In this document: piece after piece, positions 1 through 6,583 of the stretch
Layout: each line of letters begins with the position of its first letter
Numbering within the stretch: position 1 is the first letter of the stretch
Source: a virus
Taxonomy: Duplodnaviria > Heunggongvirae > Uroviricota > Caudoviricetes
Length of the DNA: 10,636 nt
Virus record (IMG/VR): IMGVR_UViG_2534682295_000015
Location: 1-10,636 of that record
Direction: 5' to 3' (one strand)
Notes under the pieces: model-generated
Told to the model about the DNA's origin: nothing
Database searches by the model: none
What the model saw: the letters and a program-made list of their open reading frames with translations, nothing else
Made by a program: the position numbers and the translations under genes

Positions 1-115
1 AAAGGCAGAGAAAGCAACTAAAGGAAGCTACATCGTAGGGCATACATCTGTTAACCAGCACGGCAATTTAACAGGAGTTTTTGTTTGCCAAAAATGGAAA
101 GGAGAACCCGGTGGC

Positions 116-868
116 GTGATTGCGGAATGTCATGTTAACTGCCTGATTGAATCAGATGATCAGGCTTATGCAAACGCTGAATTCATAGCAGAGGCTAACC
201 CGGCTACCGTGCTGGAACTGCTGGATGAACGGGAAAGAAACCAGCAATACATCAAACGCCGCGACCAGGAGAACGAGGAGATTGCGCTTACGGTTGGGAA
301 GCTGAGAGTTGAGCTGGGAGCAGCAGAGAACAACCTTATTGATAGTGAATGCCATGTTGCTGAACTGGAAGAAGCGCTACGCGATAAGCAGGCGTTACTT
401 GAAGCATCAGAGAAGCGCATAGCAGAACTGGAAGCCGAACTCGTAAGCCAAACTTACAAGTTGCCACACACGCAGTTTGAACAGATTGCTAACCTCTACG
501 AAATGCAATTTGATGACGGTCGCACTTGTGCCTTTCACACTGATGCGCAAAAGGCTGAGCAATGGCTTCAGGCGTGCGACGGAAACAGGGTTCAGGAATA
601 CGTTAAGCTGGAACGGTTGCAGAATGCGCTGTCTGGCAACTCTCCGGTAACTCCGGATGGTTGGATAAGTTGTAGTGAGCGAATGCCGGATACCAAAACA
701 GCCGTTCTTGTTGCCGTGGAGTTTGACAGGAAAGGTGACTGGCGAATGAAGTGGGCGACTTACATCCCGGGGCATCCTGACGCTAATGATGGGTGGATAA
801 TTCCTGGTGCGTCGTGGAAACCGTCACACTGGATGCCGCTACCAGAACCGCCGCAGGAGGTGAACTGA
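116..868 (+). CDS. Ead/Ea22-like prophage protein with C-terminal DUF551-like domain (possibly 5'-truncated by window edge)
   Basis: 250-codon ORF from GTG 116, with AAGGAG-like SD at about 99-104. The same frame is open back to position 2, so the true start may lie upstream of the window. N-terminal part carries the ...AEFIAEANPATVLELLDE... signature plus a coiled-coil-like E/L/A/K-rich stretch, as I recall for Ead/Ea22-like proteins. C-terminal ~70 aa (WISCSERMPDTKTAVLVAVEF...WMPLPEPP) fits the DUF551 pattern. Stop TGA 866-868 overlaps the next ATG. Confidence 0.6.
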   Translation: MIAECHVNCLIESDDQAYANAEFIAEANPATVLELLDERERNQQYIKRRDQENEEIALTVGKLRVELGAAENNLIDSECHVAELEEALRDKQALLEASEKRIAELEAELVSQTYKLPHTQFEQIANLYEMQFDDGRTCAFHTDAQKAEQWLQACDGNRVQEYVKLERLQNALSGNSPVTPDGWISCSERMPDTKTAVLVAVEFDRKGDWRMKWATYIPGHPDANDGWIIPGASWKPSHWMPLPEPPQEVN

Positions 869-1263
869 TGGAAAATGAAGGCGATAATATCATCACACTG
901 GTGCAGCCAAAGCGCGATGAAGAGAAGCTGCTGAACATTACAGTAACTGGCAGAAAAAACTACACACAACAGAGCTGTAAGCATCGGGCCATTGAGGTTC
1001 ATGAACAGGATCACGTTATCCTGTGCTTGCAGTGCGGATGTGTTGTGGACCCTTTTCAGTATGTTCTGCGGTGTGCGAACGATGGTGAGGCTGTGGTGAG
1101 AGAGATTAGACAGCTTCATAACAGACACGATCAGCTCCGAGAATCTGTTGCCAGCCTCGAGCGTGAAGAAAAGAACACCAAAGCACGGTTGCGGGCAGCA
1201 AGAACTGCAATACTGTATGCGGAAAATGACCTTAAAAATATTGAGCAGAAGGTGAATCAATGA
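868..1263 (+). CDS. Hypothetical phage protein, Cys-rich zinc-ribbon-like segment plus C-terminal coiled coil
   Basis: ATG 868 overlaps the upstream stop (ATGA) and is preceded by GGAGG at 856-860; the ORF-track start at 793 lies inside the upstream gene and is rejected. Product MENEGDNIITLVQPK... (131 aa) contains CKH-x14-CLQCGC and a charged helical tail. No family recognised. Confidence 0.55.
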   Translation: MENEGDNIITLVQPKRDEEKLLNITVTGRKNYTQQSCKHRAIEVHEQDHVILCLQCGCVVDPFQYVLRCANDGEAVVREIRQLHNRHDQLRESVASLEREEKNTKARLRAARTAILYAENDLKNIEQKVNQ

Positions 1264-1343
1264 CCTGGCCTGAAGCATTCGCAAATGTAGGAACAGTAAT
1301 GGCGGTGGTGCTGGTTGTGTATTCGATTTGTCGCTGGAGATAA
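1260..1343 (+). CDS. Possible small single-helix membrane peptide (27 aa), translationally coupled
   Basis: ATG 1260 overlaps the upstream TGA (ATGA). Product MTWPEAFANVGTVMAVVLVVYSICRWR has one hydrophobic helix. Very short, so coding status is uncertain. Confidence 0.3.
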   Translation: MTWPEAFANVGTVMAVVLVVYSICRWR

Positions 1344-1396
1344 AAACGGTTTGCGGGAAAAGGAGAGTTAAGTAGAATTGCTGCGGGTGCTTGAGG

Positions 1397-1432
1397 CTAT
1401 CTGCCTTGGGCATGAACACCAAAGGCAGATAG
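1397..1432. repeat. Imperfect inverted repeat (12-13 bp arms, ~10 nt spacer) at the left edge of the low-GC island
   Basis: CTATCTGCCTTGG (1397-1409) ... CCAAAGGCAGATAG (1419-1432) are near-perfect reverse complements (one extra T). No T-run follows on either strand, so it is not a canonical intrinsic terminator. Confidence 0.5.
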
Positions 1433-1633
1433 AGAAAAACCCACCCGACTATAAATCAAAGTGTATTACCCCCATTTGTTGGACGATGAAATGGGTTTAG
1501 TTAACTATGTCGGTATCGACATGACTAAAACAACCTTAAATTGCTCGATTAATAGACAAGTAGTTTTGAAAGATTAAATTTATGCGATCCGGTATTTTCA
1601 AGGGATAGCCTTTATGAGGTTATCTTATGGGGT

Positions 1634-1662
1634 TAAAACATCAAGAACAGTTGTGTTATAAT
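1634..1662 (+). promoter_or_regulatory. Candidate sigma70 promoter with extended -10 (TGTTATAAT) upstream of the C5-methyltransferase gene
   Basis: TGnTATAAT at 1654-1662, about 33 nt upstream of ATG 1695, with a weak -35-like TTAAAA around 1633-1638. Weak SD-like AAGAGA at 1676-1681. Sequence-based prediction only. Confidence 0.3.
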
Positions 1663-1694
1663 ACATAGAAACTAATAAGAGACGTTGCAACTAT

Positions 1695-2846
1695 ATGAAT
1701 GTAATAGATTTGTTTTCTGGCGTTGGAGGTCTAAGTCTTGGTGCTGCACGTGCTGGATTTGATGTTAAAATGGCAGTTGAAATTGATCAACATGCTATTA
1801 ATACTCACGCAATTAATTTTCCAAGAAGTTTGCACGTCCAAGAAGATGTTTCTTTACTAAATGCAGAAATAATTAAGGGTTTTTTTAAAAACGATATGCC
1901 CATAGATGGTATTATTGGCGGTCCTCCGTGCCAAGGATTTAGTTCAATAGGCAAGGGGAATCCTGATGATAGCAGGAATCAGCTTTACATGCATTTCTAC
2001 CGTTTAGTATCAGAATTACAGCCATTATTCTTTTTGGCAGAAAATGTTCCAGGTATTATGCAAGAGAAATATTCTGGCATTAGAAATAAAGCATTTAATT
2101 TGGTTAGCGGTGATTATGATATTCTTGATCCCATCAAGGTAAAAGCATCTGATTATGGTGCTCCAACTATTCGAACTAGATATTTTTTTATCGGTGTAAA
2201 AAAATCATTGAAGCTTGATATTTCAGATGAAGTATTTATGCCTAAAATGATTGATCCGGTTACTGTAAAAGATGCTTTGTATGGATTACCAGATATTATC
2301 GATGCCAATTGGCAATCAGACTCTGAGAGTTGGCGAACAATTAAAAAAGATCGAAAAGGGGGATTTTATGAAAAATTATGGGGGCAGATCCCTCGGAATG
2401 TTGGTGATACAGAATCGATCGCTAAGTTAAAAAATAATATCATATCTGGATGTACCGGAACATTACATAGCAAAATCGTCCAAGAGCGTTATGCTTCCTT
2501 ATCTTTTGGGGAAACTGATAAAATTTCAAGATCTACAAGATTAGATCCAAATGGTTTTTGCCCGACTTTAAGGGCGGGAACCGCTAGAGATAAAGGAAGC
2601 TTTCAAGCCGTCAGGCCGATCCACCCTTATCATCCAAGAGTGATTACACCAAGAGAAGCTGCTAGATTACAAGGCTTCCCTGATTGGTTTCGCTTTCATG
2701 TAACTAAATGGCATAGTTTCAGACAAATAGGAAATAGCGTGTCACCAATAGTTGCTGAATATATATTAAAGGGGCTGTACAATTTATTAAATAAAAGAGT
2801 ACAGCCCGAATATTTAAACCATAATTCTTTGGAAGTTAGGGTATAA
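1695..2846 (+). CDS. DNA (cytosine-5)-methyltransferase, Dcm-like
   Basis: 383-aa ORF with canonical C5-MTase motifs in canonical order: motif I DLFSGVGG (1707-1730), motif IV catalytic GGPPCQGFS (PCQ at 1926-1934), motif VI ENV (2040-2048), motif X-like RQIGNSVSP near the C-terminus. AT-rich codon usage matches the island. Confidence 0.9.
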   Translation: MNVIDLFSGVGGLSLGAARAGFDVKMAVEIDQHAINTHAINFPRSLHVQEDVSLLNAEIIKGFFKNDMPIDGIIGGPPCQGFSSIGKGNPDDSRNQLYMHFYRLVSELQPLFFLAENVPGIMQEKYSGIRNKAFNLVSGDYDILDPIKVKASDYGAPTIRTRYFFIGVKKSLKLDISDEVFMPKMIDPVTVKDALYGLPDIIDANWQSDSESWRTIKKDRKGGFYEKLWGQIPRNVGDTESIAKLKNNIISGCTGTLHSKIVQERYASLSFGETDKISRSTRLDPNGFCPTLRAGTARDKGSFQAVRPIHPYHPRVITPREAARLQGFPDWFRFHVTKWHSFRQIGNSVSPIVAEYILKGLYNLLNKRVQPEYLNHNSLEVRV

Positions 2847-3803
2847 CCTATAGTATTTATAATAGTTATCCCGTTCATTTTCGTTTAAAGAGAACTCTTC
2901 AGCGGCTGCCTGATATGCTTCTTTATCAGGCAGTTTACTATCTAAATTTATCTTTTCTTTAATTGTTAGTGTTGGTATTGCTATTTCTTGCACGTCTTCC
3001 CAATTTGTTGAATAAAATTGCCAGTTAGAAAGGTCGCATGCCTTAGATAACTCTATATATTCTTGTTCTGAGGAGAAAAAACCTGATATTGTCAACATGG
3101 TATGACTGCCATCATTATATTGATTTAAGGATAATGGGTAATACTGAATCTTATCCTTACGTCCTGAAAGACCACGTTCTATTGCTGATCTAAAAGCGTT
3201 TGTAATAATTCGTATTAAAAGAGCTTTAATCTTACGATCTGAAAGATCTGCATTTGATATCTGAAGATTAAAATCAAGATACTTTTTCCCAAGCAATGAT
3301 TTTAATGAATTAATAAAAGCTTCTTTAAAAATATCTAAACTTTCTCCAACTCTACGTTGGTAATAAGAACTAGGATTTATGGGGAAGGTGACCTTCAAAA
3401 TATCAAAAGAGCTTACTTTAGTACTTAGTAAGTGTATATCATCTAGATCCGTTTGTATTTTTTTCGGGGAGGCATAGTCTAACCATGTTATTGATGGTTT
3501 AGAAAAACTATAATCAAGAATAAAGTCATGAGCTGATATTAGCTTACAATCAATACAATTATAAGGCAAATTATATTTTTGTCTGATGTGAGTAGACTCT
3601 TGTTCTTCGAGAGAAATCATATCAGAAAGAGCGATACGATTATGCATGATTCTAAAATCTTCAAGCATCGGACCACCAAAACCTATATATGTATATTCTT
3701 GAATATTTAGTCTTTTGCTTAAGAGGTTTAGGCTTTCGAGAAAAATCTCTCTATCAATAGACTTATTATGCCTTAAGTGATAGGGAATGTATTGTCCAGA
3801 CAT
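2814..3803 (-). CDS. Hypothetical protein (~329 aa), downstream partner of the GHKL ATPase; function unknown
   Basis: Minus-strand ORF; ATG at 3803-3801 overlaps the upstream TGA (TGATG), with an in-frame GTG one codon further upstream (3806). GAGGTG SD-like sequence about 7 nt upstream. Product MSGQYIPYHLRHNKSIDREIFLESL...EYTYIGFGGPMLEDF... has no catalytic motif I can assign. Its 3' end overlaps the convergent MTase 3' end by 33 bp (2814-2846). Confidence 0.7.
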   Translation of the reverse strand: MSGQYIPYHLRHNKSIDREIFLESLNLLSKRLNIQEYTYIGFGGPMLEDFRIMHNRIALSDMISLEEQESTHIRQKYNLPYNCIDCKLISAHDFILDYSFSKPSITWLDYASPKKIQTDLDDIHLLSTKVSSFDILKVTFPINPSSYYQRRVGESLDIFKEAFINSLKSLLGKKYLDFNLQISNADLSDRKIKALLIRIITNAFRSAIERGLSGRKDKIQYYPLSLNQYNDGSHTMLTISGFFSSEQEYIELSKACDLSNWQFYSTNWEDVQEIAIPTLTIKEKINLDSKLPDKEAYQAAAEEFSLNENERDNYYKYYRLYPNFQRIMV

Positions 3804-5194
3804 CACTTCACCTCTTCAATCACCGTATCAAAGCATTGCATCCCCACATCAGAAGCGCTAGCATCTTCATGTCCAAAGAAATATTTAGATAAAATTTTAA
3901 CATCTTCTTTCTCTCTGGTGAAGATTATTCGTACAGTAGAGCTTTTTTTTACTGGGGTAGGCAGCTTAGGTGTATATCGCCACTCATTTTTGTTTCTATT
4001 AGGGTTGGACCAGTTATTTTTTTTATCTTCTGGAGTTGATTGTGGGGTAATTTCAAATAAAGATTGAGCTTCATGTGACTGAGCTGACTTAAGTAATTTT
4101 TTCCCTTCTTCAAGATGCTCACCTTTCCACTGATTGGTGAATCGAATAAAATGCATCATCCCTTCAATCATTTTATTTCGTACATCATTGTACAATGTAG
4201 AACTAAGATCGACACCTCGTTTCGTTGTTGTTATTGGTAATTTTTCTGGGTTTTTACTGGTAAAGCGAACAACCCCAGAAATTGCTATAAATTGGGTATG
4301 AAACCTTGGTACATTAGCAAAGCCCCAACCTGTGAGATGTGTCTTATCACAATATAGAACAACGCGGTCATTGCAAATGACAGTCCATCCAGCATCATCA
4401 GAACTCCTTTTTTCTAAAACATCATCATTGTCATCTTCTAAATTTTTATAGAAGCCAACAACTAAATCGATATCAACATCGTCTATTTTAGCTTTATATA
4501 TGTATGGTTCTATTTTAGAATGATCAGTTATGATGTTAATCGGATTATGTTCAACAACAACTCCATTTAATTCTATTTTAAATCCTTTTTGAATAATAAA
4601 TGACAATGAGTGTTTTATCTGTAAAAAGAGATCAGTAAGATATGTGCTCTCATTAAATTTTTGTGCCACATTAGAATGGAGTTTTTTTATCTCTATAGTT
4701 GTGCCTGTTGGATTTTTGTTATCATAGTCACTCTCGTGCATCGGTATTTTCCAACCATCACCATCGATCCAATCAGGTGTTATATCTACAGTGAATGCGC
4801 CATCGGGATTATTCGATTGTATTGAGCAATCTCTACCCATTTTAAAAATGGCTCTTTTCATACCAATACCATAGACGCCAACGGTGCCTTCATTTTCTTC
4901 TTCTTTTTGATGGGGTCGTCCCATTTTAAAAGCATATTCTCGGAAGCTTTTAGGGATACCTCCGCAATTGTCTTCTATAATAAAGACATCTTTATTAATC
5001 GTAAGTTTCGCATAAAATCCTTCATATGGTTTTGAAGTTTTTTTTGTGTCTTTTATTGTACGTAAAGCCCCATCGACGCAGTTATCAAGCAGATCAAGTA
5101 TGGCATCGTTTAAGTCGATATCTCGAGTTAGCATACTTACAAAAAATCTTTTACTAGGACTAAAGTCTGCTGTTGGAGTCGTGTTCTCAGTCAT
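3803..5194 (-). CDS. GHKL-superfamily (Bergerat-fold, MutL/MORC/Hsp90-like) ATPase, 463 aa
   Basis: N-terminal region carries the three ATP-binding motifs in canonical order: N-box-like DLLDNCVDGA (aa 34-43, nt 5066-5095), G1 box EDNCGGI (aa 74-80, nt 4955-4975), G2 box GVYGIGMK (aa 106-113, nt 4856-4879). The C-terminal ~300 aa are unassigned. ATG at 5194-5192. Confidence 0.8.
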   Translation of the reverse strand: MTENTTPTADFSPSKRFFVSMLTRDIDLNDAILDLLDNCVDGALRTIKDTKKTSKPYEGFYAKLTINKDVFIIEDNCGGIPKSFREYAFKMGRPHQKEEENEGTVGVYGIGMKRAIFKMGRDCSIQSNNPDGAFTVDITPDWIDGDGWKIPMHESDYDNKNPTGTTIEIKKLHSNVAQKFNESTYLTDLFLQIKHSLSFIIQKGFKIELNGVVVEHNPINIITDHSKIEPYIYKAKIDDVDIDLVVGFYKNLEDDNDDVLEKRSSDDAGWTVICNDRVVLYCDKTHLTGWGFANVPRFHTQFIAISGVVRFTSKNPEKLPITTTKRGVDLSSTLYNDVRNKMIEGMMHFIRFTNQWKGEHLEEGKKLLKSAQSHEAQSLFEITPQSTPEDKKNNWSNPNRNKNEWRYTPKLPTPVKKSSTVRIIFTREKEDVKILSKYFFGHEDASASDVGMQCFDTVIEEVK

Positions 5195-5246
5195 AATTTA
5201 CTCTCTATGTGTTTGGGAAAATAAATACCTTAAGTGCAAATTGTTG

Positions 5247-5274
5247 ATTTTAAACGCTTCGCATGCGAAGTCAA
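5247..5274 (-). promoter_or_regulatory. Candidate sigma70 promoter of the GHKL operon (TTGACT - 16 nt - TAAAAT on minus strand) with an embedded 14-bp palindrome
   Basis: Reverse complement of 5240-5280 reads ...cgTTGACTtcgcatgcgaagcgttTAAAATcaacaa... : -35 TTGACT (plus 5269-5274), 16-nt spacer, -10 TAAAAT (plus 5247-5252), about 50 nt upstream of ATG 5194. The perfect palindrome CTTCGCATGCGAAG (5257-5270) fills the spacer and overlaps the -35. Confidence 0.35.
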
Positions 5275-5368
5275 CGATGTTAAGAAAGAAAGTGCATGTG
5301 ATCTAACAGTATGTTTTTAAAAAAAGATTAGCTTTATGAGAATTCAGGACTGAATCCCGTGAGAGGAA

Positions 5369-5384
5369 AATAACATATGTTATT
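5369..5384. repeat. Perfect 16-bp palindrome AATAACATATGTTATT in the island's regulatory region
   Basis: Read directly: the sequence equals its own reverse complement. Followed by two TTGTTGCA direct repeats at 5383-5390 and 5410-5417. Confidence 0.6.
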
Positions 5385-5693
5385 GTTGCATTGCTGTGTT
5401 GTTTGGGATTTGTTGCACCATTCTGGCGTTGGTATATCTAGTTCGTTGTTCATTTTGTTAATTGTACAACAGGCAGACAACAGAGAGCTTTTAGCCTAGT
5501 TAGCTTACGAAATTAAACAACTAAGATTATCGGCGGGGAGTGGTCACCGCTACTCTTTGGCTAGGAGACTTCAACGCAACCGCACACAACCAGCTTCGGC
5601 GGGTTTTGTTTTTTCCTGGCATTCTGGTTTACAATTTGCGTGCTAGCTTGAACAACTGGCATCTGCTGCACTGCGCCATCGAGAGATTGAGAA

Positions 5694-6293
5694 ATGGCGC
5701 ATATACAACTGGTCAAACAAACTTCTTCTGGTTTACTTCTCCCGGCGACGCCGGAGAGTTGCGATTTTCTGCATCAAATCAAAATAGGTGAGTGGATACA
5801 CGCAGATTTTAAGCGTGTGCGTAACTACGCATTCCACAAGCGTTTTTTCAAACTCCTGCAACTGGGATTCGATTACTGGACTCCGGTCGGTGGGGCGATC
5901 ACGCCTCGCGAACGAGAACTGCTGTCTGGTTTCGTTGATTACCTGTGCGAATCAGTTGGTCGGGAACACACGCCAGCCCTGAGTGATGCCGCAGAGCAAT
6001 ACCTTAACACCGTTGCGACTCGTAGAACCCGGGATACGGCGTTGCTAAAGTCGTTTGAGGCTTTCCGCGAGTGGGTAACCATTCAGGCCGGATTTTACAC
6101 CGAGCATATTTATCCGGACGGTAGCCGTGGGCGTCGGGCAAAATCCATCGCTTTTGCGAATATGGACGAAGTCGAGTTTCAGCAGGTTTATAAATCTGTA
6201 CTGAATGTGCTGTGGAACTGGATTCTGTTCCGTAAATTCTCCTCTCAGGAGGAAGTTGAAAATGTGGCCGCACAACTACTGGAGTTTGCGTAA
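5694..6293 (+). CDS. Conserved lambdoid nin-region protein (199 aa), function unknown; resembles the DUF1367 family as I recall it
   Basis: ORF with ATG 5694, GC content and codon usage matching the phage backbone. Stop TAA 6291-6293 overlaps the next ATG (TAATG). Family assignment is from memory and unverified. Confidence 0.7.
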   Translation: MAHIQLVKQTSSGLLLPATPESCDFLHQIKIGEWIHADFKRVRNYAFHKRFFKLLQLGFDYWTPVGGAITPRERELLSGFVDYLCESVGREHTPALSDAAEQYLNTVATRRTRDTALLKSFEAFREWVTIQAGFYTEHIYPDGSRGRRAKSIAFANMDEVEFQQVYKSVLNVLWNWILFRKFSSQEEVENVAAQLLEFA

Positions 6294-6583
6294 TGGTGAA
6301 TTTACGTAAAGCGGCTAAAGGCCAGATATGCCAGATCAGAATCCCTGGCTACTGCAATCACAATCCCGAAACCTCTGTGCTGGCGCATTACAGGCTGGCG
6401 GGAACGTGCGGAACAGCGATAAAGCCACACGATATGCAGGCAGCGATTGCCTGTAACTCATGCCACGATTTAATCGACGGGAGAGTAAAAACCAGCGATT
6501 ACACCAAAGAAGAATTGCGCCTGATGCATGCAGAAGGTGTTTTTCGCACACAAGAGATCTGGAGAAAGGACGGTTATTTATGA
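6293..6583 (+). CDS. YbcO-like (DUF1364) putative zinc-binding nuclease of lambdoid phages
   Basis: 96-aa product with CQIRIPGYCNHNPETSVLAH...CNSCHDLIDG (CxxxxxxxC ... CxxCH), which resembles prophage YbcO-type proteins as I recall them. Coupled to both neighbours by overlapping stop/start codons. Confidence 0.6.
   Translation: MVNLRKAAKGQICQIRIPGYCNHNPETSVLAHYRLAGTCGTAIKPHDMQAAIACNSCHDLIDGRVKTSDYTKEELRLMHAEGVFRTQEIWRKDGYL

Follow-up and report, generated by a model that had tools for sequence, protein, structure and literature searches.

The GHKL ATPases of the MORC and paraMORC kinds have been placed in restriction-modification (R-M) systems, where GhXhhpXXRhl is given as an S5 signature specific to MORC, while the described paraMORCs lack this motif and either have nuclease, TIR or HEPN domains fused to them or go together with helicases or endonucleases (Iyer et al. 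2008, PMC2292703). Fusions of paraMORC with Ymh have been read as PrrC-like effectors in R-M neighbourhoods and compared to the anticodon nucleases PrrC and RloC (Anantharaman et al. 2013, PMC3710099), and a layout of C5 methylase, HATPase_c_3 protein and small partner, often with Vsr, has been read as two-component-like (Bellieny-Rabelo et al. 2021, PMC8011034). Here we present an analysis of 10,636 nucleotides of the IMG/VR virus record IMGVR_UViG_2534682295_000015 (positions 1 to 10,636; below, the window), which are a portion of a lambdoid (Rac/CP-933R-like) E. coli prophage. On the minus strand at 3803..5194, according to the list of open reading frames (ORFs) and RefSeq, the window has a MORC-like GHKL-S5 gene of 463 amino acids (aa) with an ATG start, below called the ATPase; the identical gene in RefSeq, WP_000138556.1, is labelled 'ATP-binding protein'. 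Our analysis shows that the protein is structurally and functionally like a MORC/paraMORC-type GHKL-S5 ATPase of the R-M-system kind, and that it stands in one cassette with a methyltransferase-fold partner and a Dcm-type DNA methyltransferase, a combination of which we found no description in the literature.

The gene is real and conserved rather than a chance ORF, since its homologues fall into more than 5,430 clusters at 90% identity with a uniform length of about 465 aa, and relatives are present in at least 575 GTDB species genomes; the identity within the family alignment is about 45% across phyla. The original prediction, made from the sequence of the window, read this ORF as a GHKL ATPase by its ATP-binding motifs, and this is borne out by Pfam, in which HATPase_c_3 covers residues 28-132 (E = 2.9e-9; score 37.5 bits, cut-off 25), as well as by the residues of motifs II-IV, kept in 79-81 of 81 members. 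The Bergerat fold is likewise found in the AlphaFold2 (AF2) model, with a predicted local distance difference test (pLDDT) score of 82.4, for which the fold comparisons lead to GHKL proteins with MORC3 at the top of the table (19.0, 272). The same comparison table gives SMCHD1 (16.6, 280), MORC2 (16.1, 299), MutL (13.9, 259), the Hsp90 family (about 14), and ParE, GyrB, topo II and topo VI-B (12-13), and a fold search of BFVD yields generic GHKL proteins only (topoisomerase II, Hsp90 and rIIA). On the sequence side, phmmer finds no match of the whole ATPase in the PDB, and the whole-ATPase profile has marginal matches there to MORC3 and MORC4 (E = 0.025-0.08), confined to residues 70-134 in the GHKL part. 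The ATPase has, then, both the profile match and the fold of the GHKL superfamily.

We are confident in a division of the protein into four parts, all encoded on the minus strand. The N-terminal strap (residues 1-27; 5114..5194) is recognised by conservation of PxKxFFVxMLTRDIxL, where P13, K15, F17, F18, V19 and M21-I26 are at least 95% conserved among 81 members, with low to moderate pLDDT (63-74) in the AF2 model. In GyrB and MutL an N-terminal arm is swapped between protomers upon ATP-driven dimerisation, and by analogy the strap may serve here as an exchanged dimerisation arm. It is followed by the Bergerat ATP-binding fold (residues 28-200; 4595..5113), assigned from Pfam, motifs I-IV and the profile match to MORC3 and MORC4, by an S5 domain-2-like transducer (residues 201-332; 4199..4594), with the MORC signature and the invariant TGWG, HxQF and L319-P-x-T-T-T-K325-R-G loop, and by a family-specific C-terminal domain (residues 333-463; 3806..4198) with helices and conserved motifs of its own. 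No nuclease or other effector domain is detected within the ORF by Pfam, PADLOC or NCBIfam.

The conservation of the ATPase residues was examined in the 81 members, which come from different species. In motif I (D34-x3-N38), D34 and N38 are invariant, and the position four before the Asn is Asp, not Glu. Motif II (D75-N-C-G78-G79) and motif III (G106-V-Y-G109-I-G111-M-K113) are invariant in all 81, and in motif IV G164 is present in 80 and T165 in 79, so that motifs II-IV are those of a GHKL protein. D37 and D41 are further invariant residues of the nucleotide site, and the ATP lid (residues 92-107) is modelled with pLDDT below 50. From these residues, ATP binding is expected. The codon of Asp34 occupies window positions 5093-5095, and Asp is found there in 81 of 81 members and in both sister groups described below. 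To our knowledge, the characterised GHKL ATPases all use Glu as the general base of motif I, and the E42D mutant of GyrB keeps a reduced activity; the change from Glu to Asp at the catalytic base may make the ATPase unusually slow.

The transducer is where the likeness to MORC is most specific in pattern. GhXhhpXXRhl has a single regular-expression match in the ATPase, G269-WTVICNDRVV (signature G269-WTVICND-R277-VV), which is a match of pattern only and not an alignment to MORC; the motif occurs in 37 of 20,000 shuffled sequences (p ~0.002) and in 78 of the 81 family members. The arrangement that defines MORC, a GHKL domain and then an S5 domain-2-like transducer with a basic finger, is found in the ATPase. 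No Pfam S5 match, Morc6_S5 (PF17942) included, is obtained at E up to 1, and a profile of S5 only gives matches at chance level in the PDB and Pfam, with no MORC among those in the PDB. The ATPase therefore passes the MORC test by motif pattern, not by profile similarity. At the other end of the transducer, K325 and R326 of the LPxTTTKRG loop belong to the almost wholly invariant residues (79-81 of 81 members for the ATP motifs and K325), and the loop precedes a long helix (333-355); K337 in the QTK loop of GyrB and K307 of MutL are the conserved transducer lysines of those proteins, and the loop would stand where they have theirs.

These assignments change the picture of the region behind the ATP-binding motifs. 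The original prediction held that only the first ~120 aa were explained, which agrees with the sequence profile, as Pfam reaches residue 132 (~130 aa), and it left some 340 aa unassigned, which is an overstatement: about 200 of these are the rest of the Bergerat fold plus S5, and only residues 333-463 have no assignment. Its suggestion that the segment DDAGWTVICNDRVVLYCDKTHLTGWGFANVPRFHTQFIAISGVVRF, present as residues 266-311, could be transducer/S5-like holds well, for this DDAGWT segment forms the beta-hairpin at the core of the S5 domain and contains the match to the MORC signature. The basic tail KKNNWSNPNRNKNEWRYTPKLPTPVKKSS, present as residues 391-419, was taken to suggest nucleic-acid binding, and here the evidence is weak. 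The linker of residues 358-408 is variable and the least conserved stretch of the ATPase, with a net charge of 0, against +4 for residues 409-425, and over the family residues 333-425 sum to about +8 over ~88 aa, which is mildly basic. Contact of the C-terminal tail with nucleic acid is possible, and weakly indicated by these charges. The C-terminal domain as a whole is modelled confidently by AF2 as alpha/beta (residues 333-463, pLDDT 72-94), with a conserved face on helix 333-357 (Y335, M342, G345, F349, T353, W356, K357) and further conserved points at P409-x-L-P-x-P414 and in the terminal helical pair G451-x2-C-F455 (G451, C454, F455). Its profile gives chance-level matches only in the PDB and Pfam, and no conserved metal-binding or nuclease-like motif is seen in it.

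What the original prediction missed is the operon context, namely the coupled methyltransferase-fold gene downstream of the ATPase and the Dcm beside the pair. The partner (2814..3803, minus strand; WP_000016656.1, 'O-methyltransferase') is a protein of 329 aa with the class-I S-adenosylmethionine (SAM)-methyltransferase fold, assigned by Pfam to PF20553 Methyltransf_35 with E = 2e-89. Its ATG shares the A with the stop codon of the ATPase (TGATG), a one-base overlap, and a Shine-Dalgarno-like GAGG lies 7 nt upstream; judged from this junction, the partner is translationally coupled to the ATPase. The seven-strand Rossmann-like fold, the Gly-rich motif I and the beta2 and beta4 residues of class-I SAM-methyltransferases are all found. 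Among 73 diverse members, E67 (end of beta2) and D110 (end of beta4) are invariant and the glycine-rich loop is largely conserved, so the partner likely binds SAM; Y9, R12, N14, K15, R19, R75, Y230, D232, E284 and Y315 are invariant as well. Clustered at 50%, the partner family comprises 2,214 representatives; the best 150 of them stand alone, with lengths of 178-381 aa that are in nearly every case close to 330 aa. In fold, the partner comes nearest to RNA N2-G and m5C methyltransferases and not to O-methyltransferases in particular; the label 'O-methyltransferase' is a name in Pfam and NCBI for which we found no literature. The partner is the likely output of the ATPase switch.

The Dcm gene (1695..2846, plus strand; WP_001100703.1) encodes a C5 cytosine DNA methyltransferase of 383 aa, as shown by matches to Pfam (DNA_methylase, E = 2.6e-61), PADLOC (MTase_II, E = 2e-98) and the PDB, and by PCQ and ENV motifs in the translation. 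Over the aligned residues 1-367 it is near-identical (E = 1.3e-254) to 3g7u in the PDB, titled 'Cytosine-specific methyltransferase' and presumably a structural-genomics deposit of a prophage CP-933R gene of E. coli O157:H7 EDL933. A crystal structure thus exists for one of the three cassette proteins, and the target site of Dcm is apparently unpublished. The Dcm and partner genes converge, with their 3' ends overlapping by 33 nt (2814-2846), which gives room for transcriptional interference between the methylase and the pair.

We then present an overall view of the cassette in a census of 80 species loci across bacteria and one archaeon, in which the adjacency of Dcm was decided by strict distance criteria. 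On the whole, the partner directly follows the ATPase in 75 of the 80 loci, and in 52 of these 75 the two ORFs overlap by 4 nt when counted from the first possible start codons. Dcm is adjacent in 67 of 80, upstream and co-directional in 49, and downstream and convergent, as in the window, in 13; most enterobacterial prophage loci also have the convergent arrangement. In viral or prophage contigs of IMG/VR, all three genes are found in 66 of 72 loci, relatives at 30-36% identity included. The distribution is sporadic across phyla, and the cassette is mobile. Between the pairwise-identity matrices, the correlation of GHKL with its partner is strong (r = 0.85) and that of GHKL with Dcm weak (r = 0.38); this, together with the swapping of Dcm clades reported below, shows that the ATPase and its partner are a co-evolving core and that Dcm is an exchangeable module. 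A few loci depart from the common layout. Three cyanobacterial loci (L033, L044 and L068, at ~9450-10930) have a Dcm of ~430 aa exactly at the usual place of the partner, two others (L083 and L086) have neither partner nor Dcm, seven cyanobacterial variants (L008, L013, L016, L019, L034, L043 and L056) have the pair without an adjacent Dcm, and L011 and L053 have two ATPase copies each.

Besides Dcm, only Vsr, in 21-23 of 80 loci, and an HhH-GPD glycosylase, in 4, recur as neighbours. Vsr and HhH-GPD glycosylases repair the T:G mismatches that come from deamination of 5-methylcytosine (5mC), and because both recur here, Dcm probably methylates the resident genome. Among the 135 nearest neighbours there is no recurrent helicase and no recurrent nuclease other than Vsr. 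A hidden fourth gene for a nuclease or helicase was considered and rejected, as clustering of the flanking ORFs and the Pfam and PADLOC censuses gave only Vsr and a few HhH-GPD. The simplest account of a UvrD/CinA/MiaE set, present in five or six cyanobacterial loci, is that related genomes share this synteny. In the flanks of L007-L086, three nearest-neighbour ORFs match PADLOC mad3 of MADS, the methylation-associated defence (best E = 5e-33), and three others match R subunits of Type I restriction.

Like the ATPase, two sister groups of Dcm-linked GHKL-S5 proteins have the strap, a motif I with Asp, and the S5 motifs. Sister group 1 (L152-L157, ~5970-7750; L005:10672-12498) consists of a Dcm and a GHKL-S5 protein of ~580-610 aa, with no Methyltransf_35 partner; this protein has a low-complexity linker rich in Pro, Ala and Lys and a conserved 180-aa helical C-terminal domain (LVHEAK, RxLFE, LNxAxHN), which has no match in Pfam. 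By hhalign the 180-aa domain is neither detectably a divergent HEPN nor related to the ATPase's C-terminal domain (probability 0.2% in each case). Sister group 2 carries a fused Ymh HEPN domain (L076:6210-7850; PF09509, E = 7e-34), and so has the paraMORC-Ymh architecture likened to PrrC and RloC by Anantharaman et al. (2013). In the Sideroxyarcus metagenome-assembled genome of L076, positions 5039-10342 hold a Dcm, the GHKL-Ymh(HEPN) fusion and a GHKL-Methyltransf_35 pair in tandem, that is, two Dcm-linked GHKL systems stacked. The GHKL-S5 module appears to be a common switch placed on different outputs, where the output slot is filled here by a separate methyltransferase-fold protein.

Compared with the described systems, the cassette shows a mixture of shared and distinct features. 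With the MORC family (MORC2/3/4, SMCHD1 and the prokaryotic MORCs) the ATPase shares the GHKL+S5 module, the S5 signature and a link to DNA methylation, here through the neighbouring Dcm. However, it is only ~15% identical to them, has no CW, coiled-coil or hinge domain and no Morc6_S5 match, and does not have the SF2 helicase or nuclease partner of most prokaryotic MORC operons; instead it has its own C-terminal domain, a methyltransferase-fold partner, and Asp for the catalytic Glu in all members. The paraMORCs are likewise bacterial GHKL+S5 ATPases beside C5 DNA methylases and Vsr, sporadic and laterally mobile, and a Dcm-linked GHKL-HEPN homologue with shared motifs stands right beside the ATPase-partner pair in L076. 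Unlike them, the ATPase has no fused nuclease, TIR or HEPN domain and no pairing with a helicase or endonuclease, but pairs with Methyltransf_35; a C-terminal Ymh/HEPN domain with its Rx4H motif is absent from the ATPase by Pfam and by the C-terminal profile. The N-terminal ATPase of MutL (LN40) and the 43-kDa ATPase part of GyrB/ParE resemble it in GHKL plus transducer, in a transducer lysine before a long helix, and in the N-terminal strap. The ATPase is not MutL, though: it has neither the C-terminal dimerisation/endonuclease domain of MutL nor a Toprim/GyrA partner, and no match to Pfam DNA_mis_repair, DNA_gyraseB or MutL C-terminal. The HEF_HK/Response_reg_2 loci have the same three-gene layout and an N-terminal HATPase_c_3, but there the protein has HEF_HK and another HATPase_c at the C-terminus, and the partner resembles a receiver; by Pfam the cassette has none of these domains. 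To BREX PglX and Type III Mod/Res the likeness is one of logic only, a methyltransferase-fold protein and an ATPase in a core without a dedicated nuclease, with a methylase that marks self; by PADLOC, neither ATPase nor partner is homologous to any component of BREX, DISARM or Type III systems. In the cassette only Dcm matches PADLOC, by the generic MTase_II/DruM/DrmMII models, and an NCBIfam match to MzaB (E = 0.037) is far below the cut-off.

We tentatively read the three genes as a nuclease-free, R-M-like or abortive defence cassette expressed from the prophage, a reading that we would put at a little under an even chance. Dcm would mark the resident (self) DNA with 5mC, and the ATPase would be an ATP-gated dimerising clamp or switch on DNA, like MORC, MutL and GyrB. 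ATP would drive dimerisation via the strap and the lid, the S5 lysine would sense the gamma-phosphate, and Asp in place of Glu at the catalytic base would make the ATPase a slow timer. The S5 and C-terminal domains would relay the nucleotide state to the partner, which would dock on the C-terminal domain, and the pair would respond to unmodified DNA or to interference with methylation, with the partner either as the output enzyme, by SAM-dependent methylation of nucleic acid, or as a subunit by which the state of modification is read. As the Dcm clades swap without a matching change in the pair, recognition of DNA in the unmodified state is probably not fixed on a single sequence, and it may go via the Dcm protein itself, as with Mod in Type III systems. 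In favour of this reading we count the fold with its conserved ATP-site and SAM-site residues, the constancy and coupling of the pair beside a Dcm, the analogy to the Dcm-linked HEPN fusion and to the MORC and paraMORC ATPases of R-M systems, and the low-GC, sporadically spread island on the strand opposite to early phage genes. A bolder form, which we consider unlikely, is an unrecognised kind of nuclease-free immunity in which a MORC-type clamp detects DNA without the Dcm mark and, together with the partner, silences or chemically poisons that DNA, or cellular RNA, by methylation rather than by cutting.

Several observations weigh against defence. The main difficulties are the swapping of Dcm and the loci without an adjacent Dcm, both given below, and the output chemistry, as a damaging output would have to arise in a cassette with no identified nuclease: neither the ATPase nor the partner has a nuclease domain, and the cognate restriction endonuclease of a Type II R-M system is missing. 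Only the Rossmann core of the partner (~150-200 of 330 aa) aligns to known methyltransferases. Asp for Glu in motif I could mean a very weak ATPase activity, and the K325 loop, which would be placed like the gamma-phosphate-sensing QTK-loop lysine of GyrB, is so placed from sequence position and not from model coordinates. In PADLOC-DB 2.0.0, at E up to 1, neither the ATPase nor the partner matches a single family, and defence genes are only modestly enriched among the 135 nearest neighbours (Type I restriction endonuclease 3, mad3 3, HNH 2). By the distance criteria, the pair is without an adjacent Dcm in 11 of 80 loci (3 of these at a contig end and 3 with a Dcm just outside the criteria), and GHKL and Dcm occur without the partner in 3 of 80. 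Finally, two Dcm clades are spread regardless of the tree of ATPase and partner, and the GHKL and partner identities are equal within and between the clades; such mixing is hard to square with a pair that would read one specific Dcm site, and on the latter ground we rejected a tuning of the pair to its Dcm.

The lack of a nuclease beside two methyltransferase-fold proteins is what would be expected if nothing were restricted at all, and the partner were instead a second DNA methyltransferase of new specificity that the ATPase loads or processively drives on DNA. Along with Dcm it would place several methylations on the DNA of phage and host, either as an escape from host restriction or for gene regulation. 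Such a phage-beneficial epigenetic or anti-restriction cassette seems to us unlikely, although some points speak for it: the SAM-site residues of the partner are intact, a Dcm takes exactly the partner's place in the three cyanobacterial loci, and lambdoid nin regions commonly bear orphan methylases, the window itself having an N6_N4 methylase at 7707-8765. However, most of the 80 loci are chromosomal contigs, large-genome environmental bacteria included, with mostly non-phage neighbours; a protective orphan methylase can normally do without an ATPase; the HEPN toxin domain on a homologous Dcm-linked GHKL protein points to an offensive output; and the ATPase-partner operon runs against the phage early direction, like lysogeny-expressed morons.

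The recurrence of Vsr, the only strongly recurrent neighbour, and of HhH-GPD in 4 loci could also speak for damage control of 5mC, where the ATPase would be a MutL analogue for very-short-patch T:G repair with Vsr or a mismatch glycosylase, and the partner an accessory. We regard this as quite improbable, since Vsr goes with Dcm genes generally and ~70% of the loci, the window included, are without it; the 11 loci with no adjacent Dcm, the want of any role for an invariant SAM-binding partner, the missing Pfam matches to MutL C-terminal and DNA_mis_repair, and the MutL and Vsr already present in E. coli all argue in the same direction. Still more doubtful is a signalling module, in which a GHKL kinase-like or nucleotide-sensing switch and a protein O-methyltransferase (CheR-like) would control Dcm or genes of the prophage, a role already put forward for the paraMORC relatives with HEF_HK/Response_reg_2. 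The similar layout of Dcm, GHKL protein and small partner to which Bellieny-Rabelo et al. (2021, PMC8011034) gave a two-component-like reading and the NCBI and Pfam name of the partner would suit it, but Pfam finds no DHp/His-box, receiver, HEF_HK or Response_reg_2 domain, proteins of the MORC/MutL/Hsp90-type fold with an S5 transducer are ATPase clamps and not kinases, and the closest folds of the partner are nucleic-acid methyltransferases.

Turning to the setting in the prophage, the three cassette genes form a low-GC island (1500..5400, no strand), defined by composition, with 32-37% GC against ~50% in the flanks. The island is a moron in the nin region of the lambdoid prophage, flanked by phage genes: Ead/Ea22 and DUF551 upstream, and DUF1367, YbcO, a Q-like antiterminator, the N6_N4 methylase and two tRNAs downstream. 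Transcription of the ATPase-partner operon runs counter to that of the phage early genes. A promoter-like site, TTGACT-16-TAAAAT (5247..5274, minus strand), lies upstream of the ATPase start, some 50 nt away, by consensus match only; the promoter and terminator scans of the region are no better than chance, with promoter-like sites no more numerous than shuffling would lead one to expect. In 172 of 5,426 complete E. coli genomes, O157:H7 and O111 strains included, the 4.1-kb island is present at 80% coverage or more, and among the matches listed the copies are 100% identical. As to the other genes, the N6_N4_Mtase methylase (7707-8765, plus strand) has a Pfam E of 2.4e-43 and a DPPY motif, and is followed by tRNA-Met(CAT) and tRNA-Arg(TCT) at 8806-8881 and 8962-9038. 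Beyond ~7134, downstream of the Q-like gene, the window departs from the reference locus L001, in which the tRNAs (annotated Ile and Arg) come straight after the Q-like gene. Two ORFs in the prophage early and late-regulatory regions, 793-1263 (plus strand, 156 aa) and 7236-7556 (plus strand, 106 aa), have no Pfam match.

Our analysis thus shows that the 'unknown C-terminal region' is largely ordinary, and that the cassette around it is widespread, nuclease-free and undescribed in the literature we found. In animals and plants, MORC ATPases have a central part in the silencing of transposons and genes, and their origin is thought to lie in GHKL proteins of bacteria that are associated with R-M; we found no report of a biochemically studied bacterial MORC relative. 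Because the cassette is carried by prophages of O157:H7, O111 and other E. coli, it is open to study in an ordinary model organism. Should it turn out to have no defence role, it would still be a widespread, unexplained companion of Dcm methylases. If it does serve in defence, it would provide a new type of output, a methyltransferase-fold effector gated by a GHKL switch, and a direct way to study by experiment how DNA methylation is read by MORC-type clamps; and if poisoning by methylation proved true, it would be a prokaryotic forerunner of the methylation-linked MORC silencing in eukaryotes.

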